Shown: positions 12,760 through 61,505, counted from the stretch's first letter. The stretch: 64,000 nt of DNA from Bacteroidia bacterium (GCA_023653095.1 JAMNXP010000002.1:80910-144909); one strand, 5' to 3'. Numbers and translations are program-made. Notes: generated from the sequence alone by a model not told the origin.

Positions 12760-12767
12760 TAACTTTG
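12760..12767 (+). promoter_or_regulatory. Candidate -7 box TAacTTTG upstream of the giant PKD-repeat gene
   Basis: TAnnTTTG match that overlaps the ORF-track TTG start at 12765. This argues the real start is ATG 12771 or 12777 (MKKLQK.. signal peptide). Confidence 0.25.
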
Positions 12768-12776
12768 TTAATGTCA

Positions 12777-25294: not shown

Positions 25295-26428
25295 CTATGG
25301 ACTTACTAAATTCAAACTCACATTGAAGTAAAATGGGTTGGTCAATGTGTTGGTCATCACATAGGGCTCATCAGACAACAATCCGAATGCACGGTATATT
25401 TCTTTTCCGTTGGTCAATCTATCAACATCGTAACGGTAGTTGATTCTGTACCCTGCCTGAACAGACATCCAGATGAAATCTTTCAAAGAAAATTCATAAA
25501 CGGCTCTCAAACGAATCTCGGCGCGTCTGATTTCCAAGTCTTTATCCCGATGGTCGACATCACGATATAAACGATAAGATTGCCCTTCTAATTCATAACC
25601 TGCAAAAAGCATATTGCGAGAGTTTATGGTTCTTCTCACGTGCGCTCTCGCTGGGAAAAGTACTTCCGATCCCCATTTGTTGGCTGCATCGGTATGATTG
25701 AAGAAGATGATGGGAATGTAGTTCAATTCGCCGGCACGGTAGGTGCGTGCTAGTCCAACTCCCCATTGTTTTCTTTCTGAGGGACGTTTACCGTAAATCA
25801 ACGCAGCAGAGTACTTCATATACTTTGCGGGCATCAAATTCCAATTATAGTCACCGCTCATATCTGCAGATCCTTGGAAAAGCAAGAATTTCTTATCGTT
25901 CAGTGGTTTGAAAACCGTGGTATTTATACCCATGGTTCTCAATCCGTTTGCATACAATGATTTTAGCATGGGATTTTCTACGTAACCCACAGCCAATGGG
26001 CCTTTATCCATGCCATTGTAGCCGCTTTCCCAATAATTGGCTCCCATTTGCCAAACCAACGATGTTTTTGAAATTACGGGAATGTTGCAAGCAAAACGGG
26101 CACCACTAGTGGTAGCGGTCTTTCCATTTTCGGGGAAACCTTCATTCATGTTGTTATTGAAGGTATCTAGGTTCAATTGATAAGGTCCCTGGAAATCAAA
26201 GCCGATGCTGATCAATTTAGCCGGGCTCAAACCTTCAATTTTCGGGGAGCAGTATCTTTTAGCTCCTTTATCGGCAAATCCAACTTCATCATACATCGAA
26301 AAGTCTTCGTCTTCGGTGGTGGTTTCGGGGGATGTTGCGGTGTCTGTTTGTGCCTTTACTGATGTGGTTAGTGCAAAGGCAAAGCAAGCCGCTAGTGCGG
26401 CTTGCTTGTGAAGTTTCAATAATTTCAT
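25295..26428 (-). CDS. Exported hypothetical protein, probable outer-membrane beta-barrel
   Basis: Start taken at internal Met (MKLLKLHKQAALAACFAFALTTSVKAQ signal peptide), which leaves a 4-nt gap to the upstream gene. Tyr/Gly-rich amphipathic beta-strand pattern. No known catalytic motif. Confidence 0.45.
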   Translation of the reverse strand: MKLLKLHKQAALAACFAFALTTSVKAQTDTATSPETTTEDEDFSMYDEVGFADKGAKRYCSPKIEGLSPAKLISIGFDFQGPYQLNLDTFNNNMNEGFPENGKTATTSGARFACNIPVISKTSLVWQMGANYWESGYNGMDKGPLAVGYVENPMLKSLYANGLRTMGINTTVFKPLNDKKFLLFQGSADMSGDYNWNLMPAKYMKYSAALIYGKRPSERKQWGVGLARTYRAGELNYIPIIFFNHTDAANKWGSEVLFPARAHVRRTINSRNMLFAGYELEGQSYRLYRDVDHRDKDLEIRRAEIRLRAVYEFSLKDFIWMSVQAGYRINYRYDVDRLTNGKEIYRAFGLLSDEPYVMTNTLTNPFYFNVSLNLVSP

Positions 26429-26432
26429 GGAA

Positions 26433-26897
26433 TTACTTTTTCTTGACTTCCAAACGTTTCCAAATATCGGTACGACCCAATGCAGAAACTCCAATGTATC
26501 CGCGGATTTCCAAAGAGTTTTTGTCGGTCATTTTAATAGTACAGCTGTATGTACTTCCGTTCAATGGGTCATAAATGGTGCCCTCGGTCCATTCGTCTTT
26601 ACCTGCATACACGAAGTCTTTCAACATTCTATATCCTTTAAGAGGAACGTTTTGAAGGTTTGGATCGGGGTTATTTTTGTCGGTTTTAGGTTGCTTAGTT
26701 ACTGGATCAACAGCTTCTTTAAGCCAAACAATTTTACCGTAATACTTAGCGCCAATTTTCTCCACTTTAACGCGTGCACGTCCGTTGGAAGGTTCCCAAA
26801 CGCCAATAAGTCTGTCGCCAGCGGCATCTTGGTTAACAAAAGAGCTAAGGATGGTGCCGAAGAAAGCGGCAAATGCGATGAATAATATTTTTTTCAT
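26433..26897 (-). CDS. Exported DUF2147-like protein
   Basis: Signal peptide. GxWEPSNGRARVKVEKIGAKYYGKIVWLKEA ... LEIRGYIG resembles the DUF2147 family pattern (recollection only, not verified). Confidence 0.45.
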   Translation of the reverse strand: MKKILFIAFAAFFGTILSSFVNQDAAGDRLIGVWEPSNGRARVKVEKIGAKYYGKIVWLKEAVDPVTKQPKTDKNNPDPNLQNVPLKGYRMLKDFVYAGKDEWTEGTIYDPLNGSTYSCTIKMTDKNSLEIRGYIGVSALGRTDIWKRLEVKKK

Positions 26898-27785: not shown

Positions 27786-29708
27786 ATGAATGCTTTGAGA
27801 CTTTTATTGACCACTTCAATTGCGGTTTTTTGTCAGACCATGTTTGCACAGGCTCTCTATGTATCATCGGGCGAAACCGTATTTATATCCTCCGGAACCA
27901 CAGTAACATCAACAAGTGGAGTGACAACCATTGTATCAGGGGGTACGTTAAATGTGGCGGGTGAATATCAAAGCGCAGGTAACTTTATCAATTCTGGAAC
28001 GCTTACAGCTACGTCTGGGACATTGACTTTTACTGGCTCCGGACAAACTGTTTCGGCCAACAATGCAACAGTGAAAAATGTGAATATTGGTTCATCGGCA
28101 GCTGTTACACTTAGCAGCGCACTTAATATTCAAGGGGGTACTAATTATGGTACTTTGACTGTTGCCAATGGCGGTACGCTCAATTCGGCCGGATATTTGA
28201 CTTTGAAGTCAGACGCAAATGGAAATGCAGTTGTTGCAGCTGGGTCCTCTTCTGGTTCATACATCTCAAACGCCGTGATCGTGGAGAGATACATCCCGGC
28301 CCGCAGAGCGTTCAGAATTCTATCCCCAAGCGTTACAACTTCAACTTCTATTTATGCAAACTGGCAAGAAGGTGGTTCTAGCAGCCCTTCTTTAGGTACT
28401 CATATCACCGGAAACAGCGGTTCATCTAACGGATTTGACAATACCGCGACCAACAATGCCTCTCTTTTTAGTTTTAACAACGCTTCTGGTTCAAATACCG
28501 ATGGAAGTTGGTCGGCAGTTACAAATACCAACACCAATACGTTGACTGCGGGTTCGCCTTTAAGAGTTTTAATAAGAGGTGATCGTACCATCGATCTATC
28601 TACAGCGGCCCCTACGCCTACAATAACTACCTTAAGAGCAACCGGTACTCTCGGACAAGGAAATGTCACAGTAAGTAGTCTGAGCCAAATTTCAAACGGA
28701 TTCAGTCTGGTTGGAAATCCATTTCCGACCCCTGTAAACATGAAGTCTGTTTTGGATAACGCTACCAATGTTTCTAATGCTTATTTTTATGTTTGGGATC
28801 CTCAAGTGAATACTCGCGGTGGTTATGTTACTTTTGATTTGAGCACCAGTACAAGCAATGTGGGGACTTCTAATCAAACGGTATTTCTTCAGCCTGGACA
28901 ATCCGCTTTTGTAAAAACGTCTTCTAATGGTTCAGCATCTTTGACTTTTGCTGAAAGTTATAAATCAACTGCTAGTATAAATCAAGGTGTGTTCTTAACC
29001 ATTCCTCCTCAATCGGTTTTGAAAATAGAATTATCGCAGCGTGATAGTTTTAAAGTGGGTGCAAATATGTGCGACGCGTTGATTTTGAAGTTTGATCCTT
29101 CAATGTCAAATACCTTAGAAGTTCAGGATGCGATCAAACCCATCAACCAAGATGAAAATTTGTCGGTTTTTGTTGGCGAAAAATTTTGTTCCATCGAATC
29201 AAGAAACATTCCTCAGAATGAAGAAATCATTGACCTAAGAATTTCTCAATTGAGGCATTTGAACTATACCTTGAAGGCTGAATTTACCGGGGATTTGGGA
29301 ATGGATGCTTATTTGTTGGATAGATTCACTGGCAAAACGCATCTTTTAAACAAAGTAGGCGAAACTATTGTCGAATTTGATGTTGATGCAACAACCGAGA
29401 GTAAAGCCAATCAGCGTTTTGCATTAATCTTTGATGCTGGAAACAACAGTAGAGTAAAGAGCATTCAACAGTCATTTAAAGCCTATCCAAATCCGTTAAG
29501 TGCATCGAAGATTACCTTAGATGTATTTGCGGCCCAAATTCAAAGCGTTGAAATCTATGACATTTCAGGCAGATACATGGGAAATTTGAAACCTGCCCTG
29601 AGCGAAAATGAGTTTGAACTTCACGAACAATTGCCTAACGGTGCGTATTTGCTAAGAGCAAACACCAACGAAGGTCAGTTTTCTACCACTATTTCTGTTG
29701 CTCGATAG
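27786..29708 (+). CDS. Secreted protein with Gly/Thr/Ser-rich beta-helix-like repeats and T9SS type-A C-terminal sorting domain
   Basis: Signal peptide. The N-terminal 160 aa are repeats of SGTTVTSTSGVTT..GGTLNVAG..SGTLTATSGTLTFTGSGQTV. The C-terminal ~80 aa (KAYPNPLSASKITLDVF...VEIYDISGRYMG...LPNGAYLLRANTNEGQFSTTISVAR) match a T9SS CTD. Confidence 0.75.
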   Translation: MNALRLLLTTSIAVFCQTMFAQALYVSSGETVFISSGTTVTSTSGVTTIVSGGTLNVAGEYQSAGNFINSGTLTATSGTLTFTGSGQTVSANNATVKNVNIGSSAAVTLSSALNIQGGTNYGTLTVANGGTLNSAGYLTLKSDANGNAVVAAGSSSGSYISNAVIVERYIPARRAFRILSPSVTTSTSIYANWQEGGSSSPSLGTHITGNSGSSNGFDNTATNNASLFSFNNASGSNTDGSWSAVTNTNTNTLTAGSPLRVLIRGDRTIDLSTAAPTPTITTLRATGTLGQGNVTVSSLSQISNGFSLVGNPFPTPVNMKSVLDNATNVSNAYFYVWDPQVNTRGGYVTFDLSTSTSNVGTSNQTVFLQPGQSAFVKTSSNGSASLTFAESYKSTASINQGVFLTIPPQSVLKIELSQRDSFKVGANMCDALILKFDPSMSNTLEVQDAIKPINQDENLSVFVGEKFCSIESRNIPQNEEIIDLRISQLRHLNYTLKAEFTGDLGMDAYLLDRFTGKTHLLNKVGETIVEFDVDATTESKANQRFALIFDAGNNSRVKSIQQSFKAYPNPLSASKITLDVFAAQIQSVEIYDISGRYMGNLKPALSENEFELHEQLPNGAYLLRANTNEGQFSTTISVAR

Positions 29709-34763: not shown

Positions 34764-34771
34764 TATATTTG
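34764..34771 (+). promoter_or_regulatory. Candidate -7 box TAtaTTTG driving the five-gene GldLM-like operon
   Basis: TAnnTTTG match 23 nt upstream of ATG 34795. It lies inside the longer ORF-track ORF (start 34735), which supports the internal Met as the true start. Confidence 0.3.
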
Positions 34772-34794: not shown

Positions 34795-35274
34795 ATGAGA
34801 ATATTTGCTCTAATCGTTTTAATAACCATGCCTTTTGTTTCTCATGGGCAGTCAGATAAATCTGGAGATTTGCAAACGGCTGTTCGTCAATTAGAAGCAA
34901 GAAATAATGTATTGAATAAAAGAATTAGTGAACTTGAAGATGCTAACTACAAATTGAAGTCAGAGATTGAGTCGACCAAAGCGGATGTTCAAGCTGAAAT
35001 TCGCAGATCTCAAGAGCTTCAAGCTCAGAACGAAAGAGCTATGAATTTAGCATTAGATGGATTTACCAAAAAATTCGAAGATCAAAATAAAGTAGTTCAA
35101 GGAGTTCAAGATGAGTTGGGTCGCAAGATTGATCAACAATTAATTATCATGATCGTTGGCATACTTGTTGTTGTTATCATTTTCTTGGTACTCAATAACG
35201 CTGCAACAAAGAAAGCGTTGAAACAAAATGTAGCCAATTGGAATAATTTCCAAGAACACCTATTAAAAAAATAA
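34795..35274 (+). CDS. Coiled-coil protein with N-terminal signal peptide and C-terminal TM anchor (first gene of operon)
   Basis: MRIFALIVLITMPFVSHGQ signal, a heptad-like region Q/E/K-rich (LEARNNVLNKRISELEDANYKLKSEIESTKADVQAEIRRSQELQAQ), and a C-terminal helix LIIMIVGILVVVIIFLVL. A 6-nt gap separates it from the next gene. Confidence 0.5.
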   Translation: MRIFALIVLITMPFVSHGQSDKSGDLQTAVRQLEARNNVLNKRISELEDANYKLKSEIESTKADVQAEIRRSQELQAQNERAMNLALDGFTKKFEDQNKVVQGVQDELGRKIDQQLIIMIVGILVVVIIFLVLNNAATKKALKQNVANWNNFQEHLLKK

Positions 35275-35280
35275 AACAAT

Positions 35281-35778
35281 ATGAGTAATACACAAAAAGC
35301 GCAAAAGGGTAAACTTGATGCAGTAACCTTTGTCTATGGAGTCGGTGCAGCCATCGTATTGGTCGGAGCGATGTTCAAATTCTTGGGTTGGAATTTTGCC
35401 AATGAAATGTTCATCATTGGTTTGACCGTTGAAGCAATCGTATTTTTGATATCTGCGTTCGAAAGAAAAGTTACAGAAAAAGAATATCAATGGGAACAAG
35501 TATTTCCACAGTTGGATAATGAAGGTAATAGCACTGGTGTAGATACAACGGGTTATCAATCAGCTATGCAACAATTCAGCCAAACATTGGCTCAATTGAA
35601 CGAAGGTTTAAAGGAGATGACAGCTGCTGTTAACGATATCAAAACTGAAATGCGCACAAATGCTGACCAATCAAACCAAATGAAACAGTCAATGACTGAA
35701 TTCAACAGTTTGATGACCAACTACAATGATAATCTTAAGAAAATCAACGATCAGTACAATCAGCTTTTGAATAAGTAA
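35281..35778 (+). CDS. GldL/PorL-like motor protein homologue (short, 165 aa)
   Basis: Two N-terminal TM helices with YGVGAAIVLVGAMFKFLGW and IIGLTVEAIVFLISAFE. These resemble the GldL N-terminus from memory (YGxGAAVVIxGALFK ... TEAxIFxLSAFEP), including a TM2 glutamate (E51, codon 35431-35433) at the position of the essential GldL Glu49. The cytoplasmic coiled-coil tail fits too. Confidence 0.55.
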   Translation: MSNTQKAQKGKLDAVTFVYGVGAAIVLVGAMFKFLGWNFANEMFIIGLTVEAIVFLISAFERKVTEKEYQWEQVFPQLDNEGNSTGVDTTGYQSAMQQFSQTLAQLNEGLKEMTAAVNDIKTEMRTNADQSNQMKQSMTEFNSLMTNYNDNLKKINDQYNQLLNK

Positions 35779-35786
35779 TATCCTTC

Positions 35787-37196
35787 ATGGGAAAACTGAC
35801 CGTCAGAATCTCGAAAGCAAAGAACATCTCATTCATGAGATTGTCTTTATTTTACTTGATTTTCATTGTACAAATCTTCTTTACCTCTCCTGGAATGTAT
35901 GTTTTGCAGTATCCAGATGTTCAGGAGTCGCAGAAAATGGTGAACGAACGTTTACTATCGGAGTTGAATGTATTCAAACCAAAAGTACCTGAGCATGTAG
36001 AACTCAAAAAAGCGACATTGCAGTGTCTTACTTCTTTGGAAGATGTGAAGAAAGCTTATTACGCATATGAAAAAGAAGCAAGTATTTCTGGTGACCGACT
36101 CAGAGAAAGTAAGTTTGCTGAACAGCAAATACGCAACGGTAAATGGGGTCCAATCATTGAAAGAACTCTAAATGACTTTATCAAGAATTATAATAAGGTT
36201 GGTAATAAGAATCTAAAGGAAGAGTTTATTTCATTGGAAGACAGTAAAGGCATCGAATTTGATGGATTGTACTACTTCTTTAAGGGTACACCCAACGGTG
36301 TTATACCTTCGGTGATTGAACATTTTAAAACCGTAATGCTTTATCATTCCATTTTGGCAATGAAAAAGAAAGAATCTGAACTTCCTAAGTTTGAGATTTT
36401 AACCCTAGACGAGACTGATTTCATCCAAAAGTTCAAGAAGAATTTGATTTTAGGCGAACCCCTCGATTTGATTATTCGTCCCAAAGAAATTGGAAAAAGA
36501 CCAATAGTAAAGATCAATGGTTCTCCAATTAAAGTAGATTCATTAAGTTCTTCTGATTTTAAGATGTACTTTTTACCGCCTGCGGTAGGTGATTACGCAT
36601 TGGAAGTAATGTCGAACGACAAAAGATTGTTTGCATCGTTCAAGGTGGTGCCACCTTCGTTTAGATTCATCAACTCTGCAAGTTCGGTTTCTGGTTTCGT
36701 GGGAGACCCACTATATGTTACATTAGATAGCGGATACGTCCCCAAAGGAAAATACATCACTTTTTCTTCAAAAGTGGCAAAGGTTGAGCGTAAAGGTTGG
36801 AAATTGACCATTACACCTGAGAGAGAAGGGATTTTTGTTGTGCAAATGTTTGATAATGGCAAGTTTATGGATCAATCAGAATTTGTTGCAACTGTTAAAC
36901 CTGAGGAAGAAGTTGTTTTGATGGATATCAGTGGTAATTCCGTTGACTTGAGTCAAGCCAATAAATTAGAAGCGAAAAATACGTTTTGGCAAGTGGTAGA
37001 TTTCGATATGAGTGTAACACATCCTAATGGATTTTCAAAAAGAACACACAGCTCTACGCGTTTCTTACGGAATGACTTGAGAGAACTAGAATCATCAGCT
37101 CCAGCGGGCAGTGTTTTGATTTTCGACAATATCCGCTTGGTAGGTCAGACGGATGGTGTGGTAACAAAAGGTAGGCCGGTAATAATTATTAAGTAA
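35787..37196 (+). CDS. GldM/PorM-like bitopic protein, paralogue 1 (469 aa)
   Basis: N-terminus MGKLTVRISKAKNISFMRLSLFYLIFIV: a single TM helix opening with Arg18 (codon 35838-35840), then a helical K/E-rich region followed by beta-rich regions like the GldM D1 and D2-D4 domains. It shares the MGxxxVRxxKAK N-terminal motif with the next gene. Confidence 0.5.
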   Translation: MGKLTVRISKAKNISFMRLSLFYLIFIVQIFFTSPGMYVLQYPDVQESQKMVNERLLSELNVFKPKVPEHVELKKATLQCLTSLEDVKKAYYAYEKEASISGDRLRESKFAEQQIRNGKWGPIIERTLNDFIKNYNKVGNKNLKEEFISLEDSKGIEFDGLYYFFKGTPNGVIPSVIEHFKTVMLYHSILAMKKKESELPKFEILTLDETDFIQKFKKNLILGEPLDLIIRPKEIGKRPIVKINGSPIKVDSLSSSDFKMYFLPPAVGDYALEVMSNDKRLFASFKVVPPSFRFINSASSVSGFVGDPLYVTLDSGYVPKGKYITFSSKVAKVERKGWKLTITPEREGIFVVQMFDNGKFMDQSEFVATVKPEEEVVLMDISGNSVDLSQANKLEAKNTFWQVVDFDMSVTHPNGFSKRTHSSTRFLRNDLRELESSAPAGSVLIFDNIRLVGQTDGVVTKGRPVIIIK

Positions 37197-37197
37197 C

Positions 37198-38568
37198 ATG
37201 GGAAATTTTGTTAGAGTAAAAAAAGCCAAGGTTCTGCGTTTTCAATTGATAAGCGTTATGTACTTGTTATTTATCTCGCTATCCATATTGCAAATCCCCA
37301 TTGATTGGTTGAGAACAAACATCAATATGGCTCAGTATATAAATAATTCCACGTCTGTTGAGATGGATAATAAGCAGATTATCGCTGTTTATGACGAGAT
37401 AGAGACTATTGAGAAGGAGTTTTACAAAGAAGTGGGTTACGATTTAGATAGGAAAATCTACAAAGATCCAGACAGTTATAGCGGAACAGATATGTATTTT
37501 ATCCGTTGGAAGAAAGGTTATAAGTTGTTTAACAAAATTGTAGAACTGAAAAAGTATCATTTATCCCTTCCAGATAACAATCCCAAAAAGGCTGAGTTCA
37601 AAAAGTTATTTGCTGACGATTTGAAAAATGGGTTAGAAGCAGAAAAGGCAACGCTTTGGGTAGAGTGGAAGTTTAAGCACGTACCTGCTGGTGTAGTGGT
37701 TACTTGGTTGGCAGATTTGAAATTGAGAATGAAACTGTTAAACGGTGGAATAATTCTTAAGGAAGAGCAAAATGCTGATTATTTGGTGCTTATGGCTTAC
37801 AACATGGAAGCGGTTCGTCCAGGAGACACGGTTAGAATTGTGGTTTTCAATCATGAGGAAATGCAGGTAAGTGCCACTGAAAACGACAAAGTGTTTGATT
37901 TAAAAGATTGGCATGGAGATACCTTGTTTTTTGTACCAAAATATGTGGGTATCTACAATTTGAGTTTCAAAAAGAATGGGGTTGAGGAGAACTTAAAAGT
38001 GACTTCGATTGCCAAGACTTTTGAACGCGAGAAAGATAACAAATACAACATTTTTTACGAAGGAAAACCAGCGGAACTGCATTATGTGAATTTGTTAAAT
38101 CCAGCAGGTATTAGCTGTGATTGTGATCCAAATATTGCCATGAATAGAAGCAGTAACAAGGTAACATTTACGCCGCAAAAGTCTGGTTGGTGCAGTTTTG
38201 TGATCAACAATAAAGACGGTAGAGCGCTTTTGAGGGACTCAATTTATGTTCAAAAGATACCTGAGCCCTTTCTTTATGCCGAGGGAAGTAGCGGAAGTGT
38301 AATGTCAAGAACGCGTCTAAAAGCTGATGGCTTTGTGTATATTTATGGAACACATCCTGATTTACAAAAGTTTAAATATTCGTTATCAAACATTAAGTAT
38401 CGTTTGGTAGGTGCTACGAATGAGGTAATGAGTTCTTCGGGTAGTAAACTTTCTTTGACAGCAGATCAAGTTGACAAAGTAAAGTATATTGTGGTTCAAG
38501 GTGCCGATATCAATACAGGTTCTAAGGGAATGGTTTTTGAGAAGCCATTAGTAATTCAAATTAAGTAA
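37198..38568 (+). CDS. GldM/PorM-like bitopic protein, paralogue 2 (456 aa)
   Basis: N-terminus MGNFVRVKKAKVLRFQLISVMYLLFISLSIL matches the GldM N-terminal pattern R-QKMINLMYLVF. Arg14 (codon 37237-37239) sits 7 residues before MYL, exactly as GldM Arg9 sits before M16-Y17-L18. Helical region then beta-rich periplasmic region. A 1-nt gap separates it from paralogue 1. Confidence 0.55.
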   Translation: MGNFVRVKKAKVLRFQLISVMYLLFISLSILQIPIDWLRTNINMAQYINNSTSVEMDNKQIIAVYDEIETIEKEFYKEVGYDLDRKIYKDPDSYSGTDMYFIRWKKGYKLFNKIVELKKYHLSLPDNNPKKAEFKKLFADDLKNGLEAEKATLWVEWKFKHVPAGVVVTWLADLKLRMKLLNGGIILKEEQNADYLVLMAYNMEAVRPGDTVRIVVFNHEEMQVSATENDKVFDLKDWHGDTLFFVPKYVGIYNLSFKKNGVEENLKVTSIAKTFEREKDNKYNIFYEGKPAELHYVNLLNPAGISCDCDPNIAMNRSSNKVTFTPQKSGWCSFVINNKDGRALLRDSIYVQKIPEPFLYAEGSSGSVMSRTRLKADGFVYIYGTHPDLQKFKYSLSNIKYRLVGATNEVMSSSGSKLSLTADQVDKVKYIVVQGADINTGSKGMVFEKPLVIQIK

Positions 38569-38574
38569 TCAACA

Positions 38575-40782
38575 ATGAGAAATATATTTCATACCTTTTC
38601 AACTATTTTAGCCTTGGCATCATTTTCGATGCTCCAAGCGCAGTCTAGCGAAGTGGTGATATCTGGCACACGGGTGGTAGATTCTTCGGAAACTTTTAGC
38701 GTAAAGCCCGGTCAAACATTGATTTTTGAGGAAGGCGCGCGTTTGTTGGTATTTGGTGGCCTAAATATCAAGGGTACACAAGATAATCCAACAAAAATCA
38801 TCTCACGCAACGCTGAAACCCCTGGTCTGGGTATTGTCATTGCAGATAATAAATCTAGAAATCAGGATGTCATTGTTGAGAATGCCGAAGTATCAGGATT
38901 GGTTCAGGCCCTCCGATTTGATCCTTTTTGGTACAGGAAGTCGGTGCGTATTAATAACGTGAAGTTCTCAGGTATTGATTCTAGGGAGCCTTTGATTTAT
39001 GCATCTTCGCCTCTGTTAGATTTGAGAGATAATAAGAGTATTGATTTTCAAATCACCAATTCACGATTCTTTAATAATACGGGTAATGTAATTCTTGAAA
39101 AAGTGGGTTCATTGGGAATCAAATATACTCTTGATAAATTGACTTTCAACGACAATACCTTGAAAGGAGATAATGCATCTATGGGAATTCTTCATTTAGA
39201 TTTTGCTCGCACGGTAATTGCTGATGAAGTTTTATTGGGTGATTTGACTTTTGTGAACAACAAGGCAGGAGATAAGAACATAGGTCTTTCGGTTAGCGGC
39301 GGATCTGGTGTTCCTGTTAATATTCCAACAGGAAAAGTATTTTCAAATGCCTCTGGTACTCAAGTCATTTTTGATAACCGTCGCGATCCACGTTTGCCTA
39401 AAATTGGTGCAAATGAGACATCCAGCCTGAAGGAAAAAGGAGGCGATGAAATCTTCATCACTGGAGCAACTCACAAATTTGGCCGTTTAGCCCTAGAAGT
39501 TGTTGGTCAACCTAAGATTGTTGAAATTAAAGATTCTTTTGGTAGAGCGGTTTTCATCAATCAAAACCTTGTAGGTGATAGCTTAATTGCCACTTATTTA
39601 GAAGGTAATCCGGTTACTTTAACCTTACAAAACGGATTGAAATACAATGTGCCTCAGTTAACTGCGGCGCAACTACCTCCACCTTTATATAGAAGGGTAG
39701 ATACTACGTTAATTAGTCCCGAGTGGCCTGATACCACTTTGAAAGCAAAAGTGGGATTTATGATTATTATTCCGATGTTCCATAATCCCAAAGAAATCGA
39801 GAAATTGAAAACTTGGGAATTCGGTTTTTGGGGCGGTGGATCTATTTATGGGGGCGGTGATATTGCGTACAAGGGCTGGCCAATACCTTCCACAATAGAA
39901 ATTAGCGGTGGTGGTTATGCACAGTATAATCTAACCAATGCGTTTTCATTAAAGTCAAATATTTACCGATCAACGGTTTCGGTGCACAATCTTTGGGCAC
40001 AAGGTCTCCTATCTGGTGGAAAGGTCCCATTGGTTACCGATACGGCTGGTAATAAAATTCAACCATATCCTAATTCTTGGCCAATGATGTTTGTCACTCC
40101 AATGACGGTTCTGGACGTAGAAGGACTATGGCATATAGGTAAGTACAGTTTTAAGCCCGGTCAAAAAGGAAAGTTTGTGAATTCAATGGGAATTAGCTTG
40201 GGAGTATTCACATACACGCCATACAGAATAGCATACCGTAATCAAAAAAATGATGAGTCTGACGCCGCCTATAAAGCGCGTTTGTGGAGTGAGGAGAGAG
40301 TGAATTTGAGGGAGCTGGGTTTGGAAGGACAAAACTTCCTCGAGAACAGTAAACCATATGGTAAATTCTCTATGAATGTTGGACTTTCTTGGCAATTGGC
40401 ATACATCAGAAAACGTTGGGCCTTCAAAGGTGAAGCAAAAGCGGTTTACACCTTTACCGATTATTTAGATGATTATGGTCCTGGTTTATGGTATGGCGGT
40501 GATTATGATGCTTGGTTGCAAAGCGTAAAAGACAATCCAACCTATGCCCAAGATCCTACATTCTTCGCAAATGGAGATCTGAATCAGCCATTGGCAAAAT
40601 TATACAAAACCTCAGGCGGTTCAACCACTCACACTGTGATTTCCCCTAACGCCGCTCGTTCTACCAATGGTGTCAACGACTGGTACTATCAAGCTCATAT
40701 GGGACTTTCATACAGACTACAGAAGAAGGATGAGAAACCCAAGATTGAGACTCTAAAAGAGAAAGAATCAAAGAAGAACTAA
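38575..40782 (+). CDS. Secreted hypothetical protein with N-terminal parallel beta-helix-like repeats (last gene of operon)
   Basis: Signal peptide MRNIFHTFSTILALASFSMLQAQ. Repetitive Asn/Gly-rich beta-solenoid-like segments (NNTGNVILEKVG.., NDNTLKGDNASMG.., FVNNKAGDKNIGLS..). The C-terminal half is rich in aromatics and Gly. A 6-nt gap separates it from the upstream gene. Confidence 0.45.
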   Translation: MRNIFHTFSTILALASFSMLQAQSSEVVISGTRVVDSSETFSVKPGQTLIFEEGARLLVFGGLNIKGTQDNPTKIISRNAETPGLGIVIADNKSRNQDVIVENAEVSGLVQALRFDPFWYRKSVRINNVKFSGIDSREPLIYASSPLLDLRDNKSIDFQITNSRFFNNTGNVILEKVGSLGIKYTLDKLTFNDNTLKGDNASMGILHLDFARTVIADEVLLGDLTFVNNKAGDKNIGLSVSGGSGVPVNIPTGKVFSNASGTQVIFDNRRDPRLPKIGANETSSLKEKGGDEIFITGATHKFGRLALEVVGQPKIVEIKDSFGRAVFINQNLVGDSLIATYLEGNPVTLTLQNGLKYNVPQLTAAQLPPPLYRRVDTTLISPEWPDTTLKAKVGFMIIIPMFHNPKEIEKLKTWEFGFWGGGSIYGGGDIAYKGWPIPSTIEISGGGYAQYNLTNAFSLKSNIYRSTVSVHNLWAQGLLSGGKVPLVTDTAGNKIQPYPNSWPMMFVTPMTVLDVEGLWHIGKYSFKPGQKGKFVNSMGISLGVFTYTPYRIAYRNQKNDESDAAYKARLWSEERVNLRELGLEGQNFLENSKPYGKFSMNVGLSWQLAYIRKRWAFKGEAKAVYTFTDYLDDYGPGLWYGGDYDAWLQSVKDNPTYAQDPTFFANGDLNQPLAKLYKTSGGSTTHTVISPNAARSTNGVNDWYYQAHMGLSYRLQKKDEKPKIETLKEKESKKN

Positions 40783-40789
40783 ATACGGA

Positions 40790-40812
40790 AGGCCCCAAAT
40801 GGGGCCTTTTTT
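40790..40812 (+). terminator. Rho-independent terminator ending the five-gene operon
   Basis: AGGCCCC aaat GGGGCCT perfect 7-bp GC stem followed by TTTTTT. Confidence 0.85.
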
Positions 40813-40813
40813 A

Positions 40814-40846
40814 TTGATGAAATCACCAATAAATCACCTAAATTTG
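40814..40846 (+). promoter_or_regulatory. Candidate Bacteroidota promoter for sucB (TTG-N22-TAaaTTTG)
   Basis: TTG at 40814-40816 and TAAATTTG at 40839-40846, with the ATG at 40868. Spacing matches the -33/-7 consensus. Confidence 0.4.
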
Positions 40847-51514: not shown

Positions 51515-52775
51515 AGTACTACATATCAATGCCTCCTCAGAGGGTGGAGCATCTGTGGTTGCTCAACGACTCAATGAAGGATTGAATCGTTTTGGTCAAG
51601 AGGTTGAATCCAAACATTTGGTATTTTCTGGTCAATTGAGCCATGCACAAAGTGCTTCACCCTACATATTATGGGCCGATAATCTGCCAAAGAGGTGGTT
51701 TACTTTCCTAAAACATGCATTAGATAAGCTCAGTTTCTTGCGATTTGAGGCATCAAAGAAGGTCAGATTTCAATTCAGTCATGCCAGTCAAGGATTTGAC
51801 ATTTCCAACCATGAATTGGTACAATGGGCAGATATTATACATTTACATTGGGTACATAAAGGATTCCAATCTTTTGAAACTTTGGAAAAGTTATTGTCAG
51901 TACCCCACAAAAAATTTGTTTGGACCTGTCATGATTTATGGCCTGTAACCGGAGGTTGTTATTATACCTGGGGATGCGAAAATCATCAAGTGGCTTGCGG
52001 TAACTGTAAGTATTTAAAACATCCTGCCCTGAATGATATTTCTAGTTCTTTACTTGAGCGAAAAATTAAACTTTGGGGTAACAACCAAATCAAATTTGTG
52101 ACACCCAGTAGTTGGCTTGCCCATCAAGCCAATTCTAGCGTTGTTATGAAAAACAATGTTGAAATGTCTGTGATTCCCAATCCTATAGACTCTGAGAAGT
52201 TTCAACCCTTGGAAGAAGGAGTGAGGCAGGAATTGAAGCAGAGCCATGGATTTGATAAACCGTTGTTGATGTTTTCGGCAGCGTACTTACAAAATCCAGC
52301 AAAGGGTTTTTTATTTTTCATTGAGTTGTGTAATTGTCTGCGCCAACAGAATATTGATTTTGAGGTTTTGATTTTAGGAGACAATAAAAACGAGGAATTG
52401 GGGCCATTTTCCTTTAAGTTTACGCATTGGGGATACGTTACTGACATGGACAGGGTGAAATTAGCCTTCCAATTGAGCGATTTATATGTCATTACTTCGG
52501 TGCAAGACAACCTACCAACAACCATCATAGAAAGCTTGTCTATGGGCACGCCGGCTGCAGGGTTTAGGGTAGGAGGTATACCAGAAATGATAGACGATGG
52601 CGTTAATGGTTTCCTGGTTGAATCGGGTGATGTTTTAAGCCTTTCAAAAAAGGTGGGAGACTTCCTAAAAAACAATCGGGCCGATTTTAGAAATCAAGCC
52701 CGACTGAAAACATTAAATACATACGATACAAAGGTGATAGTAAATCAAATTACCACGGTCTATAAATCTCTTTAA
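51501..52775 (+). CDS. GT-B fold glycosyltransferase (family 4-like)
   Basis: C-terminal E..GFG.P-type motif (DNLPTTIIESLSMGTPAAGFRVGGIPEMIDDGVNGFLVE). Confidence 0.8.
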   Translation: MSKIKVLHINASSEGGASVVAQRLNEGLNRFGQEVESKHLVFSGQLSHAQSASPYILWADNLPKRWFTFLKHALDKLSFLRFEASKKVRFQFSHASQGFDISNHELVQWADIIHLHWVHKGFQSFETLEKLLSVPHKKFVWTCHDLWPVTGGCYYTWGCENHQVACGNCKYLKHPALNDISSSLLERKIKLWGNNQIKFVTPSSWLAHQANSSVVMKNNVEMSVIPNPIDSEKFQPLEEGVRQELKQSHGFDKPLLMFSAAYLQNPAKGFLFFIELCNCLRQQNIDFEVLILGDNKNEELGPFSFKFTHWGYVTDMDRVKLAFQLSDLYVITSVQDNLPTTIIESLSMGTPAAGFRVGGIPEMIDDGVNGFLVESGDVLSLSKKVGDFLKNNRADFRNQARLKTLNTYDTKVIVNQITTVYKSL

Positions 52776-54268
52776 TCTACGTTGTCATGCAACATCCTGT
52801 TGGGTTGCACAGTGAAATTGTTGTCTTTAGAATGTGTTTCAGTGCCCTGAATGGTTAATCTACTTACTTCTACAGCGCTACTAGGAGGTGCCGAAACCAA
52901 TTCTACGTTACGTCTCAAATAAGCAGGAATATCCATGTCGTTGTCATGTATACTCGCTTTGTTTTCTCGACTCAACGATTGTACGGCAGGCTGTTGATAA
53001 TTTAAGTGCAGCTGTGAATTACGGTTACTTTGTGTTTTAAAAAGATCTTCAACGCTTGGAGTGTTGATGTTCTCTTTCACGGTTAATGGCTTAGATTCTA
53101 TAACAGGTTCTGTTTTGGCAGCCATCGGCTCTCTGATAGGCTCTCTTGCAGGATCTCTCGCAGGCTCTCTAGATGGAGTTTCGAAACTAGCATCTTCAAT
53201 TTCTAAAGGAAGATCGGTTGGTACAAAGGTTTGAGTTTGTGCAACTTCTTCTATAAGTTGGTCAGTAAAAACTTCTTTTTGAATGGCTGTTACTTCTTCA
53301 AATCCAGTTGCAATAACGGTCACACTGATTTTGTCTTCCAATGTTGGTTCGAGGGTAATACCCATTTTTAGCAATGCATTGTTACCCGCTTCTTCTTGTA
53401 GGTAAGATGTAATGATTCGAGTTTCAGACATGGTGGGTGCTTTGGTGCCGTAGGTTAGGTTAATCAAAAGGTGTTTTGCACCAAAAATTCTAGTACTATC
53501 AAGCAATGGACTATTTAATGCAGCTCTAACGGCTAATTCCGCACGATTTTCACCGGCAGCAGTTCCAGTGCCCATTAAGGCTTGACCTGATCCTTGCATG
53601 GCGGTTTTAACGTCGTTGAAGTCTACGTTTAAGTGTCCGGTTTTGAAAATGATCTCTGCAATTCCCCTCGCGGCAGTGCAAAGTACATCATCGGCTTTCG
53701 AAAAGGCTTCTAAGAACGACAAATCGCCGAACATATCTACGATACGGTCATTGGAAATGGATATAAGAGCATCTACATGAGGTTTTAAATCAGCAATACC
53801 CTGTTGGGCTTGTTTTATCCTTACTGGACCTTCATCTGAGAAAGGAATGGTCACAATTCCAACCGTCAAAATGCCCATTTCTTTGGCGAATTTTGCAATG
53901 ATGGGAACTGCCCCAGTACCTGTTCCACCGCCCATGCCGGCAGTCAAGAAAATCATTCGGGTACCATCACCTAGCATTCGTTGAATATCGGCTTTGCTTT
54001 CTTCTGCAGCTTTTGCTCCCATATTGGGATCAGATCCAGCGCCAAGTCCTGCAGTAAGTTCATTACCCAATTGTATTTTATTGGGAACAGGACTATGTCT
54101 GAGTGCTTGGTTATCTGTATTGCAGATGAAGAAATCTACGCCCTCAATACCTTCACGGTACATATGATTGACAGCGTTTCCTCCGCCGCCACCTACTCCA
54201 ATGACTTTAATGATGTTATTCAATTTATTCGGTTGATTAGGTTCTGAATGAAAATCAGGTTGAAACAT
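52772..54268 (-). CDS. ftsZ: Cell division GTPase FtsZ
   Basis: IKVIGVGGGGGNAVNHM tubulin/FtsZ signature, GTGTGAAP T7 region, and a disordered C-terminal linker. Confidence 0.95.
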   Translation of the reverse strand: MFQPDFHSEPNQPNKLNNIIKVIGVGGGGGNAVNHMYREGIEGVDFFICNTDNQALRHSPVPNKIQLGNELTAGLGAGSDPNMGAKAAEESKADIQRMLGDGTRMIFLTAGMGGGTGTGAVPIIAKFAKEMGILTVGIVTIPFSDEGPVRIKQAQQGIADLKPHVDALISISNDRIVDMFGDLSFLEAFSKADDVLCTAARGIAEIIFKTGHLNVDFNDVKTAMQGSGQALMGTGTAAGENRAELAVRAALNSPLLDSTRIFGAKHLLINLTYGTKAPTMSETRIITSYLQEEAGNNALLKMGITLEPTLEDKISVTVIATGFEEVTAIQKEVFTDQLIEEVAQTQTFVPTDLPLEIEDASFETPSREPARDPAREPIREPMAAKTEPVIESKPLTVKENINTPSVEDLFKTQSNRNSQLHLNYQQPAVQSLSRENKASIHDNDMDIPAYLRRNVELVSAPPSSAVEVSRLTIQGTETHSKDNNFTVQPNRMLHDNVD

Positions 54269-54279
54269 GGTTTTAGATT

Positions 54280-55671
54280 TTAGTTGTGGGTGAAATCATC
54301 AGCATCATCAGAGATCCATTCGCTGATGAAATTTTTGAAAATTCCGTTGCCTGGGTACAAGCTCTTCCATGAAATACCTTTCTTTTTATTTTGGGGGATT
54401 TCTTGAGTGGTTTCGCCTACCATTTCAGGTTCAGGTTGAGGTTGAGGAGTAGTTTTGGGTTGAGCAATTTCTTCTACATGTAGGTTTGGATAATTGGTTG
54501 GTTTCAGTTGTTCTGTCTCAATTCCCTTCATAACCAAACCAATGGCAGTAGAATACATGGGGTTGCGAACTTCTTCAATCATTCCTTTGCCTAAATGTTG
54601 GCCAGGGCTATTCAAATGTACATCCAGGCCGGTATTGTAACTGAAGAATTGATTGATGTCTTTTAAACTTGATCCGCCACCGGTTAAAACTATGCCTCCG
54701 TTCAAACGGTGTTGAATTCCTGAAAGTTGAATTTCGAAATCTACTTTTTGAACGATGTCTTCCATACGTGCTTTAATAACCTGTGAAATAGCATAAACGG
54801 AAATTTCTCTAGGAGACCTGCCCGGTAATCCTGGTATGACTACCACTTCGTTTTTCATGTTTTCTAGGCTAAAGCAGCTTCCGTATTTTACTTTCACTTC
54901 TTCGGCTTGTTCCTTTAGTATACCAAAAGCTTCTTGTAAATCTTGGGTAATGCGATCTCCTCCAATTGGAATAATGGCAGTATGAACAATTTTACCTGAA
55001 TCGAAAATGCATATATCTGTGGTTCCACCGCCAATATCTACGAGTGCAACGCCGGCTTCCATTTCTTGTTCAGACAAAATTGCTTGAGCCGATGCTACAG
55101 GTTCAACCACGAGGTCAGCCAAGTGTAAACCCGCTTTCATTACGGCTTTGCCAATGGTGCGCGCACGACTGGTTTCGCCGGTGATGATGTGGAAATTGCA
55201 TTCTACACGCGTACCAATGCGACCTTCGGGGTCTCTGATTCCGTCTTCGCCGTCAATTCTGTATTCTTGGGGTAAAACATGTAGTATTTCCAAGCCTGGA
55301 GATAACGCCAAGTTCTCCATTTCTGTGGTAAGACTATTCAATTCCTCCTTTGTGATTTCTTCTTCTCCATTTCTACGAGTCAAAGTTCCTCTGTGCTGCA
55401 AACTTTTAATGTGGTGACCAGCAATACCCACATAAACGGTATTGATTTTTACTCTGCTCAGTTTTTCTGCTTGTTTGACAGCTTCTTCAATGGCAGTTAC
55501 TACTCTGCTTACGTTAGCAACCATGCCTCGAGAAACTCCACCTTGCGATGATGCTTTACCAACACCCAAGATGTTGATCTTTCCGTTTTCGGAAAGTTGT
55601 GATACAATCACACAAATTTTTGTGGTTCCGATGTCAAGTCCTGCAATGATGTTATTATTCGTTGGCGTCAT
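54280..55671 (-). CDS. ftsA: Cell division protein FtsA
   Basis: IIAGLDIGTTKICVIV actin-like N-terminus. Start set at internal Met (MTPTNNNIIAGLDIG, codon ending 55671). The ORF-track start 55758 would overlap ftsQ by 38 nt. Confidence 0.85.
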   Translation of the reverse strand: MTPTNNNIIAGLDIGTTKICVIVSQLSENGKINILGVGKASSQGGVSRGMVANVSRVVTAIEEAVKQAEKLSRVKINTVYVGIAGHHIKSLQHRGTLTRRNGEEEITKEELNSLTTEMENLALSPGLEILHVLPQEYRIDGEDGIRDPEGRIGTRVECNFHIITGETSRARTIGKAVMKAGLHLADLVVEPVASAQAILSEQEMEAGVALVDIGGGTTDICIFDSGKIVHTAIIPIGGDRITQDLQEAFGILKEQAEEVKVKYGSCFSLENMKNEVVVIPGLPGRSPREISVYAISQVIKARMEDIVQKVDFEIQLSGIQHRLNGGIVLTGGGSSLKDINQFFSYNTGLDVHLNSPGQHLGKGMIEEVRNPMYSTAIGLVMKGIETEQLKPTNYPNLHVEEIAQPKTTPQPQPEPEMVGETTQEIPQNKKKGISWKSLYPGNGIFKNFISEWISDDADDFTHN

Positions 55672-55720
55672 ACTATTTATGTTTGGCTTATTAGACAGTG
55701 ATTTTGGTTTTTTGTATAAT

Positions 55721-56515
55721 TTATTGTTCAGTTCTTCTTCCCACAATCTGATCTTCATACGAAATATCTATTTCCCGGTAGGTGTTCCAACCCACCTGCG
55801 GAAGGCCTTTTTCGTAGAAAAGACGGAGGTTTTCGAACTTTTTTTCCATGTTCGTAGTGTTATCCAAAACAATGCTATGCTTTCCTACTCGGGGAATCAA
55901 CAAATACCGCCCAAACTTATCTACATAGCACTGTTCAAATTGCGCGTTCCACAGCTCGTTAGACCTTATAAACTTGCTTAAGTTTAATAATTCTAACATT
56001 TGTGGTGAGCCAGCGCGCTTACCCGACTCAAATTTTTGCTTCACATTTCCATTGATTACCCAAACAACGGGTGTTTGAATTCCTCTCTTAGGAATCATAT
56101 ATCCTCCGGTATCAATAAAAAACAATGAATCTTGGTTGTTCTTGATTAAGGCAATTGGCTCTCGCTCTTTTACCCTGATCTTCAAAGTTCCATCAAATGC
56201 GACATAAATAATTCCCTTGAATACGTAAGGAACCTTCTGAAGTTCAATTTCCATTTTGGTGAGCTCCACTTCAGATGCAGGTCTCCCAACAGGATTATCA
56301 AAGTGTTGTTGTACCCAATTAACCACTGCTTGTTTGGTTAAAAAGTTGTAGCCCGATTCTGAGGCATCAATTTCAACTTCCAAGTTTCCAATGATTCGGT
56401 TTTTACCAGCAAAACTTAATTTAGACCATGCGAAAATTAAGATCATGATCACTATTGCGGCAATGGTAATCATCCATTGTCTTCTGCTGAATGCCAATCT
56501 AATCTTATCTCTCAT
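55721..56515 (-). CDS. ftsQ: Cell division protein FtsQ (POTRA-domain)
   Basis: N-terminal single TM (WMITIAAIVIMILIFAW), at the right position in the dcw cluster. 264 aa. Confidence 0.7.
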   Translation of the reverse strand: MRDKIRLAFSRRQWMITIAAIVIMILIFAWSKLSFAGKNRIIGNLEVEIDASESGYNFLTKQAVVNWVQQHFDNPVGRPASEVELTKMEIELQKVPYVFKGIIYVAFDGTLKIRVKEREPIALIKNNQDSLFFIDTGGYMIPKRGIQTPVVWVINGNVKQKFESGKRAGSPQMLELLNLSKFIRSNELWNAQFEQCYVDKFGRYLLIPRVGKHSIVLDNTTNMEKKFENLRLFYEKGLPQVGWNTYREIDISYEDQIVGRRTEQ

Positions 56516-57881
56516 GGTGTCTTAGTTTTGCGCTTAATCTATCAATGTCGCCTGCACCCATGATCAAAATCAACTCAGGCGATTCAGACTTGATTTTTTC
56601 AAGAATCTGTTCTTGGTCTAATAACGACTTATTTTGATGGGTTACTAGGCTCAAGAGCCACTCAGAAGTGATGCCTTCTATGGGCTTTTCTCTAGCCGGA
56701 TAAATATCCATCAAAATCAACTCATCTACCAATGATAAACTCTCCGCAAATTCTTGAGCAAAGTCTCTGGTTCTGCTGAATAAATGCGGTTGGAACACTC
56801 CTGTGATTTTCTTTTCAGGGTACAACGTTCTTACCGATTTGATGATGGCTTTTATTTCTTCAGGGTGATGAGCATAGTCATCAATAATCACTTGTTCGGG
56901 ACTGTTTTTTAGGAATTCAAATCGGCGTTTTACTCCTTTAAAACTTGCAACTCCATTTGCAATTTGATTTGGAGGTATCTTCAACGAGTTTAAGCAAAGT
57001 GCCGCTGCTGCCGTAGCATTTGACACGTTGTGATGACCAGGAAGTCCGCAAACAAATTTTTGTCCTTGAAGGTCAAATACGTATTGATGATTTTCAATTC
57101 GCACGTTTTCATAGGTAAATGCACAATCGGCTTCCGTTCCGTATCTATGCAGTTTTACATGAGCTGGAATACTCATTTGAACGCGTTCTTCGAGATATAG
57201 GTCGCCCATTTTTTCTGGGGATATTAACTCGGCGAACACTTTGAAAGCTTCAAAAAATGACTTTGAATCCCCGTAAATATCTAAATGATCAGCATCAATG
57301 GCGGTAATGATGGCCGCATCAGGACGCAGTTGATGAAAACTGCGGTCAAATTCATCAGCCTCAACAACCACAATGTCTTTTTCGAACAGCTGAATGCCGT
57401 TGGTGTGACTGATGTAGTTGGATTGGTAATTGCTGGATATCCCACCAAGGAAAGCACTGAAATTCACATTGCAGGTTTTCAAAAGGTGAGCCAATAGGGT
57501 TGAGGTGGTGGTTTTTCCGTGGGTGCCGGCCACCGCTAGACATATTTTATCTTGAGTGAGAAGTCCTAAAATCTGTGATCTTTTGTGAAGCGTAATTCCT
57601 TGCTCTTGCAACCAAATCCATTGAGGGTGATCTTTTGGAATGGCGGGGGTATAGACAAAAAGGGTGTTATTCAGGTCTGATTTTACTTCCATTGGCAAGG
57701 CGTCAATGGCGTCGTTATAGGTAATGCTTACGCCAAGACCCTCTAATTCAATAGTTAAGTCAGTACGGGTTTTGTCATAGCCCCAAACCGATATGTTTTG
57801 CTCCAACAAATACCTGCAAATGGCACTCATTCCAATGCCGCCAACACCTATGAAATATGCTTTCTGAAACGACTTATTCAC
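56505..57881 (-). CDS. murC: UDP-N-acetylmuramate--L-alanine ligase
   Basis: YFIGVGGIGMSAICRYL N-terminus and Mur ligase motifs (AGTHGKTTT). dcw position. Confidence 0.95.
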   Translation of the reverse strand: MNKSFQKAYFIGVGGIGMSAICRYLLEQNISVWGYDKTRTDLTIELEGLGVSITYNDAIDALPMEVKSDLNNTLFVYTPAIPKDHPQWIWLQEQGITLHKRSQILGLLTQDKICLAVAGTHGKTTTSTLLAHLLKTCNVNFSAFLGGISSNYQSNYISHTNGIQLFEKDIVVVEADEFDRSFHQLRPDAAIITAIDADHLDIYGDSKSFFEAFKVFAELISPEKMGDLYLEERVQMSIPAHVKLHRYGTEADCAFTYENVRIENHQYVFDLQGQKFVCGLPGHHNVSNATAAAALCLNSLKIPPNQIANGVASFKGVKRRFEFLKNSPEQVIIDDYAHHPEEIKAIIKSVRTLYPEKKITGVFQPHLFSRTRDFAQEFAESLSLVDELILMDIYPAREKPIEGITSEWLLSLVTHQNKSLLDQEQILEKIKSESPELILIMGAGDIDRLSAKLRHHER

Positions 57882-60149: not shown

Positions 60150-60163
60150 ATCCGTATATGAGT

Positions 60164-61501: not shown

Positions 61502-61505
61502 GCGG

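Follow-up and report, generated by a model that had tools for sequence, protein, structure and literature searches.

The window analysed here is a 64,000-nucleotide (nt) stretch of DNA from a metagenome-assembled genome (MAG) of a Bacteroidia bacterium (GCA_023653095.1, JAMNXP010000002.1:80910-144909), and its positions 34795-40782 carry five closely spaced, co-directional genes. To our knowledge, GldLM/PorLM represents one of very few classes of ion-driven rotary motor, known so far only for type IX secretion (T9SS) and gliding and always accompanied by a GldK/GldN ring. The five-gene operon is a conserved and so far undescribed variant of this motor class. Its open reading frames (ORFs), whose lengths are given in amino acids (aa), and the sites discussed below are as follows; TM stands for transmembrane and Ig for immunoglobulin.

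34764-34771, + strand: TAtaTTTG, a match to TAnnTTTG (Bacteroidota -7 element), 24 nt before the gene 1 ATG
34795-35274, + strand: gene 1, an ORF of 159 aa, predicted bitopic coiled-coil protein
35281-35778, + strand: gene 2, 165 aa, short GldL/PorL paralog
35431-35433, + strand: gene 2 Glu51 codon, equivalent of GldL Glu49 in TM helix 2
35787-37196, + strand: gene 3, 469 aa, GldM-like paralog A
37198-38568, + strand: gene 4, 456 aa, GldM-like paralog B
37237-37239, + strand: gene 4 Arg14 codon, in the register of the functionally important and highly conserved GldM Arg9
38575-40782, + strand: gene 5, 735 aa, predicted beta-helix, Ig-like domain and PorG-like outer-membrane barrel
39802-40719, + strand: gene 5 barrel, with conserved long loops at aa 548-597 and 627-702
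40787-40810, + strand: intrinsic terminator, 10-bp stem with 6 GC pairs, 4-nt loop and T-run

A first-pass annotation of the window had claimed five ORFs at 34795-40782 spaced 1-8 nt apart, and all five are present in the same direction, with intergenic gaps of 6, 8, 1 and 6 nt from gene 1 to gene 5. The strong terminator that it had placed at 40790 agrees with the best terminator-like site of the region at 40787-40810. Its -7 box stood only in part: a motif match does lie 24 nt upstream of gene 1, but the window has 59 copies of TAnnTTTG where chance alone would give 73 +/- 8, and since the motif is not enriched, the match at 34764-34771 is by itself no evidence of a promoter, although its position is suggestive. 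The motif recurs at 40839-40846, after the terminator and before sucB, which fits with the cassette being its own transcription unit. Copies of TAnnTTTG are also found 5-40 nt upstream of many + strand starts in the window (2496, 9487, 10282, 12760, 27749, 40839, 44328 and 46159), and this placement relative to start codons may reflect real promoters despite the lack of overall enrichment. An alternative gene 1 ATG at 34735 is also open; the start at 34795 was preferred because many orthologs are 159-160 aa in length and the -7 box lies downstream of 34735. In the source MAG records (locus tags NBV77_03145 to 03155, on a contig of 287.5 kb), genes 3 and 5 are each listed as 'hypothetical protein', and gene 2 (MCL9980419.1) as 'gliding motility protein GldL'.

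Predicted motor subunits at the inner membrane

Gene 2 had been said to possess the two-TM N-terminus of GldL/PorL, and profile searches bore this out. The protein scored 89.4 bits against Pfam PF22827 GldL_N (cutoff 24, E=1.7e-25) and 90.4 bits against TIGR03513 (cutoff 68.3), the latter covering only profile positions 5-68 of 247, i.e. the N-terminal two-TM domain. It also matched the GldL/PorL chains in all five solved motor structures with E values between 3.6e-16 and 5.3e-10, the best Protein Data Bank (PDB) matches being PorL 7SAT (E=3.6e-16) and GldL 7SAU (E=4.3e-15). Its two TM helices span aa 14-32 and 42-60, and its cytoplasmic region is a coiled coil. In an alignment of 19 sequences, including 15 orthologs and three canonical GldL/PorL fragments from solved structures, Tyr19, Lys33 and Glu51 of gene 2 correspond to GldL Tyr13, Lys27 and Glu49 and are invariant. 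The roles of these GldL residues, among them the essential proton-carrying Glu49 in TM helix 2, have been described in the GldLM structure paper (bioRxiv 10.1101/2020.05.11.089193). On these matches, gene 2 is a true GldL/PorL homolog.

By contrast, gene 2 has Gly in place of the invariant His30 of the GldL periplasmic loop, a residue that touches the GldM periplasmic domain in the canonical motor. Lys27, the other loop residue making this contact, is kept as Lys33. Among 120 listed members of the short GldL clade, the 112 that could be scored at this position had Gly (103), Ala (7) or Asn (2) and never His, whereas the loop His was found in 70/70 scorable canonical GldL fragments. Median identity over the N-terminal domain was 80% within the short GldL family compared with 45% to canonical GldLs, and a neighbour-joining tree of this domain, in which canonical GldLs from Flavobacteriales, Sphingobacteriales and Bacteroidales were included, set the short GldL clade apart from the canonical ones in 98/100 bootstraps. 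Combined, the loss of the loop His, the two levels of identity and the split in the tree indicate that the short GldL is a paralogous lineage rather than a drifting ortholog. The cytoplasmic part is shortened (165 aa in all, vs 212-309 aa in canonical GldLs), and only the extreme C-terminus of gene 2 (NYNDNLKKINDQYNQLL) aligns, weakly, to the canonical C-terminal GldL motif.

Genes 2, 3 and 4 had all been assigned to the GldL/GldM families; against the corresponding profile models, genes 2 and 4 scored above cutoffs, while gene 3 had no match and is linked to GldM via the gene 4 family. Gene 4 scored 33.2 bits against PF12081 GldM_1st (cutoff 25, E=6.7e-8), a model that 13/17 of its orthologs match too. 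Its AlphaFold2 model, which was built from a 47-sequence alignment with a mean pLDDT of 80.3, is predicted to consist of a TM helix, an all-alpha D1 domain (59-182) and beta-sandwiches at 197-270, 292-352 and 358-455, and the top Foldseek matches of this model in the PDB were to the complete periplasmic portions of GldM 6EY4 (E=3.8e-13) and PorM 7CMG (E=2.2e-11), above generic Ig-repeat proteins. In the TM helix, R14 aligns to R8 of Capnocytophaga GldM 7SAZ, and Arg14 (over 47 sequences) and Tyr22 are invariant and stand 8 residues apart, as do GldM Arg9 and Tyr17. A GldM-like nature of gene 4 is thus supported by a GldM_1st match above cutoff and by a model whose best structural matches are GldM and PorM. 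Pfam GldM_2nd, GldM_3rd and GldM_4th had no match in genes 3 and 4 of the window, and PDB sequence searches with the single gene 3 and gene 4 sequences returned nothing useful.

Gene 3 alone had no Pfam, NCBIfam or PDB sequence match; among its orthologs, Filamin/Ig repeats were matched in 6/16 and GldM_4th in 1/16. A BLASTP comparison of gene 3 with gene 4 was marginal (E=0.076), and a comparison of the two family profiles by hhalign extended over 377 columns with 98.6% probability (E=7.6e-16). The claim that the two proteins are bitopic and paralogous was upheld, and on the evidence of this profile alignment genes 3 and 4 are paralogs. The conserved Arg and the TM signature had been attributed to both of them. 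This is correct for gene 4 (R14 and Y22); the N-terminal TM helix of gene 3 has kept the Tyr (Tyr23) but carries Ser15 at the position of GldM Arg9, and its R18 is out of register, at a site where the family has K or R and Arg is not conserved. The third periplasmic domain of gene 4 contains two invariant cysteines, Cys307 and Cys332, for which the gene 3 family has no counterpart at those positions, and this conservation suggests a disulfide between them.

The same asymmetry was encountered in a very distant cassette, L038, which encodes a bitopic coiled-coil protein, a GldL, two GldM-like proteins and a gene 5-like protein. Both of its GldM-like proteins match GldM_1st and GldM_4th, the first having Ile in place of the Arg and the second reading 'RRKIINLMY'. 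Judged from these alignments, an unequal axle with the Arg absent in the first protein and present in the second is conserved across the window type and L038, which also agree in gene order. Genes 3 and 4 are separated by 1 nt in the window, and several of the related loci have one ORF ending at the very coordinate at which the next one begins; such tight spacing fits with a coupled, equimolar synthesis of the two proteins.

Given that canonical GldM is a homodimer, genes 3 and 4 could each form a homodimer within its own gene 2 pentamer, so that gene 4, with its Arg, would make up an active motor and gene 3, lacking it, an assembly that is inactive or serves in regulation or structure. Two single-GldM cassettes, L005 (10001-17041) and L039 (8001-15159), show that the system does occur in a homodimeric version; in them, a short GldL is accompanied by one GldM-like protein with the Arg (551-554 aa), a beta-helix/PorG-like counterpart of gene 5 and a further, uncharacterised protein of 875-882 aa, with no gene 1-like gene upstream; moreover, a heterodimer stoichiometry is deduced from the genes. 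We nevertheless consider two separate homodimers unlikely, because the paralogs always occur together, closely spaced and in a fixed order, in the whole family and in L038, and because a conserved asymmetry with no Arg in the first and Arg in the second protein would be easier to understand in a heteromeric axle. Paired axle paralogs are also known genetically from AglQ/AglS of Myxococcus and from ExbD1/ExbD2: in AglRQS (Myxococcus gliding) and ExbB-ExbD1-ExbD2, one ring gene is combined with two diverged axle paralogs, suggesting a heteromeric axle. These systems belong to the TolQR/ExbBD family, not to GldLM, and AglQ and AglS have each retained the charged residue of the TM helix, whereas one paralog of the cassette has lost it.

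Loss of the loop His that contacts GldM, an axle subunit without Arg and a gene 2 cytoplasmic domain cut short (165 aa vs 212-309 aa) would also agree with a loss of motor function, the GldL and GldM folds then being reused in a static structure that spans the envelope as a tether or scaffold, such as a staple between outer and inner membrane or a complex for glycan processing. By contrast, the invariance of Glu51, Tyr19 and Lys33 in gene 2 and of Arg14 and Tyr22 in gene 4 over deep divergence is unexpected for a passive scaffold, and makes a static role very improbable.

The product of gene 1 had been called a tail-anchored coiled-coil protein, a description that does not apply in its usual sense. 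It has a signal-peptide-like N-terminus, a coiled coil bearing a conserved QAQNERAMNLALD motif, a TM helix at aa 115-133 and, after it, a conserved tail (NWNxFQEHxLKK). From this order of a signal-like segment, a TM helix and a cytoplasmic tail, gene 1 is predicted to be a bitopic inner-membrane protein with its tail in the cytoplasm and its coiled coil in the periplasm. No specific family match was found for it in Pfam or NCBIfam. A gene 1 homolog is located upstream of the GldL-like gene in nearly all related loci that extend far enough, and L038 has an analogous 344-aa protein in this position.

Gene 5 as a predicted outer-membrane partner

A beta-helix, as claimed for gene 5 in the first-pass annotation, is present in its structure model; the protein is not a free secreted one, being fused to a C-terminal eight-stranded outer-membrane barrel. 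The model, obtained from a 26-sequence alignment with a mean pLDDT of 83, runs from a signal peptide through a right-handed beta-helix (~26-290), a beta-sandwich (294-358) and a disordered linker (371-398) to a barrel (410-715) of eight long strands that are connected by short turns at one end and by long loops at the opposite end; the barrel resembles those of OmpA, OprF, NspA and OmpW. According to this model, gene 5 is an outer-membrane protein in which a lyase-like beta-helix and an Ig domain are tethered to an eight-stranded PorG-like barrel, in agreement with the earlier suggestion that the motor serves an output other than the canonical one.

PorG (PGN_0297) is an 8-stranded barrel that is disulfide-linked through a conserved C-terminal Cys to the PorK ring and connects the T9SS ring with the outer membrane (PMC12365241). 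The likeness of gene 5 to PorG lies in this C-terminal barrel and in family matches to the NCBIfam PorG profile (NF052316). Gene 5 of the window scored 29 bits against this profile, below the cutoff of 130, and 15/16 orthologs matched it, all under the cutoff, with 54-79 bits for the best relatives. The gene 5-like proteins of the distant cassettes matched near the whole profile, with E=3.5e-22 in L039 (positions 3-202 of 209) and E=2.6e-15 in L038. In addition to family scores of 29-79 bits and to the absence of the Cys that forms the PorK disulfide, gene 5 differs from PorG in its length of 735 aa with an N-terminal beta-helix and Ig module, in its very long conserved loops, and in being encoded beside the motor, whereas porG of P. 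gingivalis is located near bamA.

The best-conserved motifs of the gene 5 family, LRxLGxEGQNF and the acidic cluster TSTDYLDDFGPGLWYGGD, sit in the long barrel loops and not in the strands. Their conservation, together with their place in the model, hints that the loops form a functional site on the surface side, possibly a metal-binding one. By the usual topology of such barrels, the loops would face the cell surface and the beta-helix would be periplasmic. Right-handed beta-helices also occur in PL6 alginate lyases, AlgG epimerase, VexL and phage tailspike depolymerases, with 7-17% identity to gene 5; in comparison with these glycan enzymes, the gene 5 domain is joined to an outer-membrane barrel and encoded beside a motor. 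A PDB search with the gene 5 family profile returned nothing useful. The first rungs of the beta-helix (window 38611-38826, gene 5 aa ~13-84) match repeat modules in proteins of 1,500-7,700 aa, including 12 stretches in one giant protein (P0366), indicating a beta-helix unit common to large repeat proteins.

Conservation of the cassette and the absence of gldK and gldN

Among 185,579 species-representative genomes scanned, 32 cassette loci were recovered, all of them in MAGs of uncultured Flavobacteriales or 'Bacteroidia', including three complete chromosomes:

CP051243.1: complete cassette-bearing chromosome
OZ257133.1: complete cassette-bearing chromosome
NZ_OZ245832.1: complete cassette-bearing chromosome

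Wherever a locus is long enough to be compared (about 30 loci), all five genes are present and identically ordered, down to about 30% identity, and the flanks vary between lineages. That the flanking genes change and the five genes stay indicates that the five-gene cassette is the unit of inheritance. The neighbouring genes of the window (an upstream TonB-dependent receptor, a DUF5117 protease and the downstream sucB) were considered as parts of the system and set aside, as they are syntenic in closer relatives alone and absent in distant ones. Members of the short GldL clade come from at least two lineages of Flavobacteriales, and also from MAGs that carry the label Bacteroidales. One MAG, ZE-13may13-36 (CANKVM01), contains two divergent whole cassettes, L007 and L020, whose gene 4 proteins are 82% and 44% identical to that of the window, and this pair represents either a true duplication or a mixed bin. 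Two other identities for the cassette were rejected: a defence system with a Zorya-like 5:2 motor, for which PADLOC gave weak coiled-coil matches alone, and a mobile element, there being no plasmid homolog of gene 4 and the flanks being housekeeping genes.

The claim that gldK and gldN are missing was upheld. With varied E-value thresholds, no match to GldK (FGE-sulfatase) or GldN was found in the cassette or in the scanned window ORFs of >=150 aa (all except five at 57874-63910 and those at 26427-26885, + strand, and 26433-26897, - strand), and neither gene was found in about 35 related loci. In two canonical control loci (L040 and L041), which come from Flavobacteriales MAGs other than the cassette carriers, PorP/SprF, GldK, GldL, GldM with its four Pfam domains and GldN are encoded consecutively. 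The gldL of these canonical operons appears as two ORFs (L040:4014-4793 and L041:6001-6967), a GldL_N-only one of 104-105 aa followed by one of 144-236 aa, and gldM of L041 is split too, probably owing to frameshifts or assembly errors.

No second GldL or canonical GldM was found beyond the cassette copy in the 64-kb window or in 37 fetched loci. A protein-database search with the GldL fragment of Schleiferia thermophila (7SAU) returned fragments of <=112 aa alone and no canonical GldL from the cassette-bearing chromosomes. The window itself encodes three predicted T9SS cargo proteins, which indicate that the organism has a T9SS:

2512-4056, + strand: T9SS cargo with a type A sorting domain (TIGR04183)
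12765-20699, + strand: T9SS cargo of 2644 aa with a type B sorting domain (TIGR04131)
27786-29708, + strand: T9SS cargo with a type A sorting domain (TIGR04183)

Because such cargo needs a motor, the cassette might be the organism's only GldLM, i.e. a diverged T9SS/gliding motor with rearranged genes and accessory proteins whose gldK and gldN are located elsewhere. This would agree with the lack of a second GldL in the window or in any fetched flank, with the plain NCBI annotation of gene 2 as 'GldL', with its intact proton-path residues, and with a PorG-like gene 5, PorG being a T9SS component. However, the short GldL forms a clade separate from the canonical GldLs of three orders (98/100) and is always without the loop His, gldK and gldN flank gldLM in the controls and never do so in about 35 cassette loci, and gene 5 has no Cys of the kind that ties PorG to PorK. 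The occurrence of two divergent cassettes (L007 and L020) in one MAG also disagrees with a sole motor, though bin contamination may be involved. Furthermore, a sole motor would require repeated loss of the canonical pair, given the spread of the clade over at least two Flavobacteriales lineages and 'Bacteroidales' MAGs and given that the GldL of Schleiferia thermophila is canonical. We therefore regard it as quite unlikely that the cassette is the only GldLM of its host.

Several findings combine to make it highly probable that the cassette is a second system beside a canonical T9SS motor: its GldL belongs to a clade apart and has lost the loop His, the extra genes are a fixed part of it, gldK and gldN are missing from about 35 loci, and Schleiferia thermophila, a cultured relative of one carrier lineage, has a canonical GldL (7SAU). 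The T9SS cargo encoded in the window and the joint K-L-M-N arrangement of canonical loci point the same way.

A proposed envelope-spanning machine

We propose that the five genes specify a self-contained machine spanning the envelope, with a proton-driven rotary motor paralogous to GldLM/PorLM at its core, which works on gene 5 without a GldK/GldN ring, and we assign a probability of roughly 60% to this reading. In such a machine, five gene 2 subunits would enclose, in the inner membrane, the TM helices of a single gene 3 protein and a single gene 4 protein, and proton flow, via protonation and deprotonation of gene 2 Glu51 against gene 4 Arg14, would turn the heterodimeric shaft. The distal Ig-like domains of the shaft would cross the periplasm to engage the beta-helix/Ig module of gene 5, which would hang from its barrel by the ~30-residue linker on the periplasmic side, so that work would be passed straight to the outer-membrane barrel with no GldK/GldN ring in between. 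Gene 1 probably anchors or spaces the complex, and its conserved tail may touch gene 2 on the cytoplasmic side. The most likely output, and the weakest step of the proposal, would be a movement or conformational cycling of gene 5 that acts on an envelope or surface glycan, as suggested by its polysaccharide-lyase-like beta-helix fold and its conserved acidic surface loops. The cassette would most likely operate alongside the canonical T9SS motor and not replace it.

A broader proposal, which we put forward tentatively and hold to be possible rather than probable, is that the cassette would be the founding example of a family of T9SS-independent GldLM-class motors across Bacteroidota, with single-GldM and double-GldM subtypes, an obligate heterodimer axle carrying one coupling Arg (5:1:1), and a PorG-like barrel with a glycan-lyase-like beta-helix that is driven directly.

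A number of points weigh against the proposed machine. On the side of the motor, replacement of His30 by Gly means that the interface between GldL and GldM differs, and function is not to be assumed. The Foldseek TM-scores of gene 4 were low (~0.3) with matches made domain by domain, the domains of the model being arranged differently from those of GldM and PorM, and the gene 4 family profile gave a marginal GldM match in the PDB that was confined to the TM helix (E=0.03). For gene 3, GldM homology has its basis in the comparison with the gene 4 family. On the side of the output, the match of gene 5 to the PorG profile is limited, in the window clade, to the first part of the profile (positions ~3-60), and there is no Cys in gene 5, so a disulfide of the PorG-PorK type, for which PorG uses its Cys, is impossible. 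Pfam searches of gene 5 and 16 orthologs found no family and left the beta-helix without a match; it would be lyase-like by its predicted fold. The 5:1:1 assembly, the contact between shaft and gene 5 and the rotation are inferred from subunit homology and the conserved charged pair. The standing of the cassette as a second system is likewise deduced from indirect evidence. Finally, all cassette carriers are uncultured MAGs, and any function is predicted from the genes.

The proposed machine can be compared with known systems. It shares with GldLM/PorLM (6YS8, which is F. johnsoniae GldLM, 7SAT, 6EY4 and 7CMG) a two-TM GldL-type subunit with the proton-path Tyr, Lys and Glu and a bitopic GldM-type subunit with the TM Arg and Tyr, a helical D1 and, in the gene 4 model, three predicted Ig-like domains, the two being encoded by adjacent co-directional genes. 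It differs in having a GldL of 165 aa with Gly for His30 that belongs to a separate clade, two diverged GldM paralogs with Arg in one alone, no adjacent gldK or gldN, and two extra conserved genes (1 and 5). Ton (ExbB-ExbD-TonB) and Tol-Pal would be similar in their plan of a 5:2-class ion-driven inner-membrane motor, a periplasm-spanning element and an outer-membrane barrel receiving force. By contrast, the cassette has no sequence or fold kinship to ExbB, ExbD, TonB, TolQ or TolR, its gene 5 barrel is predicted to be 8-stranded without plug or channel, and its shaft would consist of Ig-like domains. A full-text search of the literature found no description of GldL/GldM paralogs, of extra copies or of the cassette.

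Elsewhere in the window, part of a division and cell-wall cluster (ftsZ, ftsA, an unassigned ORF of 264 aa and murC) is located at 52772-57881 on the - strand, and a GH65 family glycoside hydrolase/phosphorylase adjoins a beta-phosphoglucomutase at 5511-8476 on the - strand, a typical pair for phosphorolysis of the maltose/kojibiose type.

If a separate output partner is indeed driven by this motor, the GldLM class would have been recruited to more than one task, like MotAB, ExbBD and TolQR. A natural asymmetric axle with the coupling Arg in one subunit would provide a ready test of subunit alternation in the motor cycle, and the direct combination of motor and PorG-like barrel is relevant to a recently proposed transmission of T9SS rotation to PorG at the outer membrane. 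The cassette proteins are small enough for co-expression and cryo-electron microscopy, so that these questions can be addressed without a cultured host. If the broader proposal is true, the cassette would represent a new proton-powered machine acting on the cell envelope or on surface glycans.

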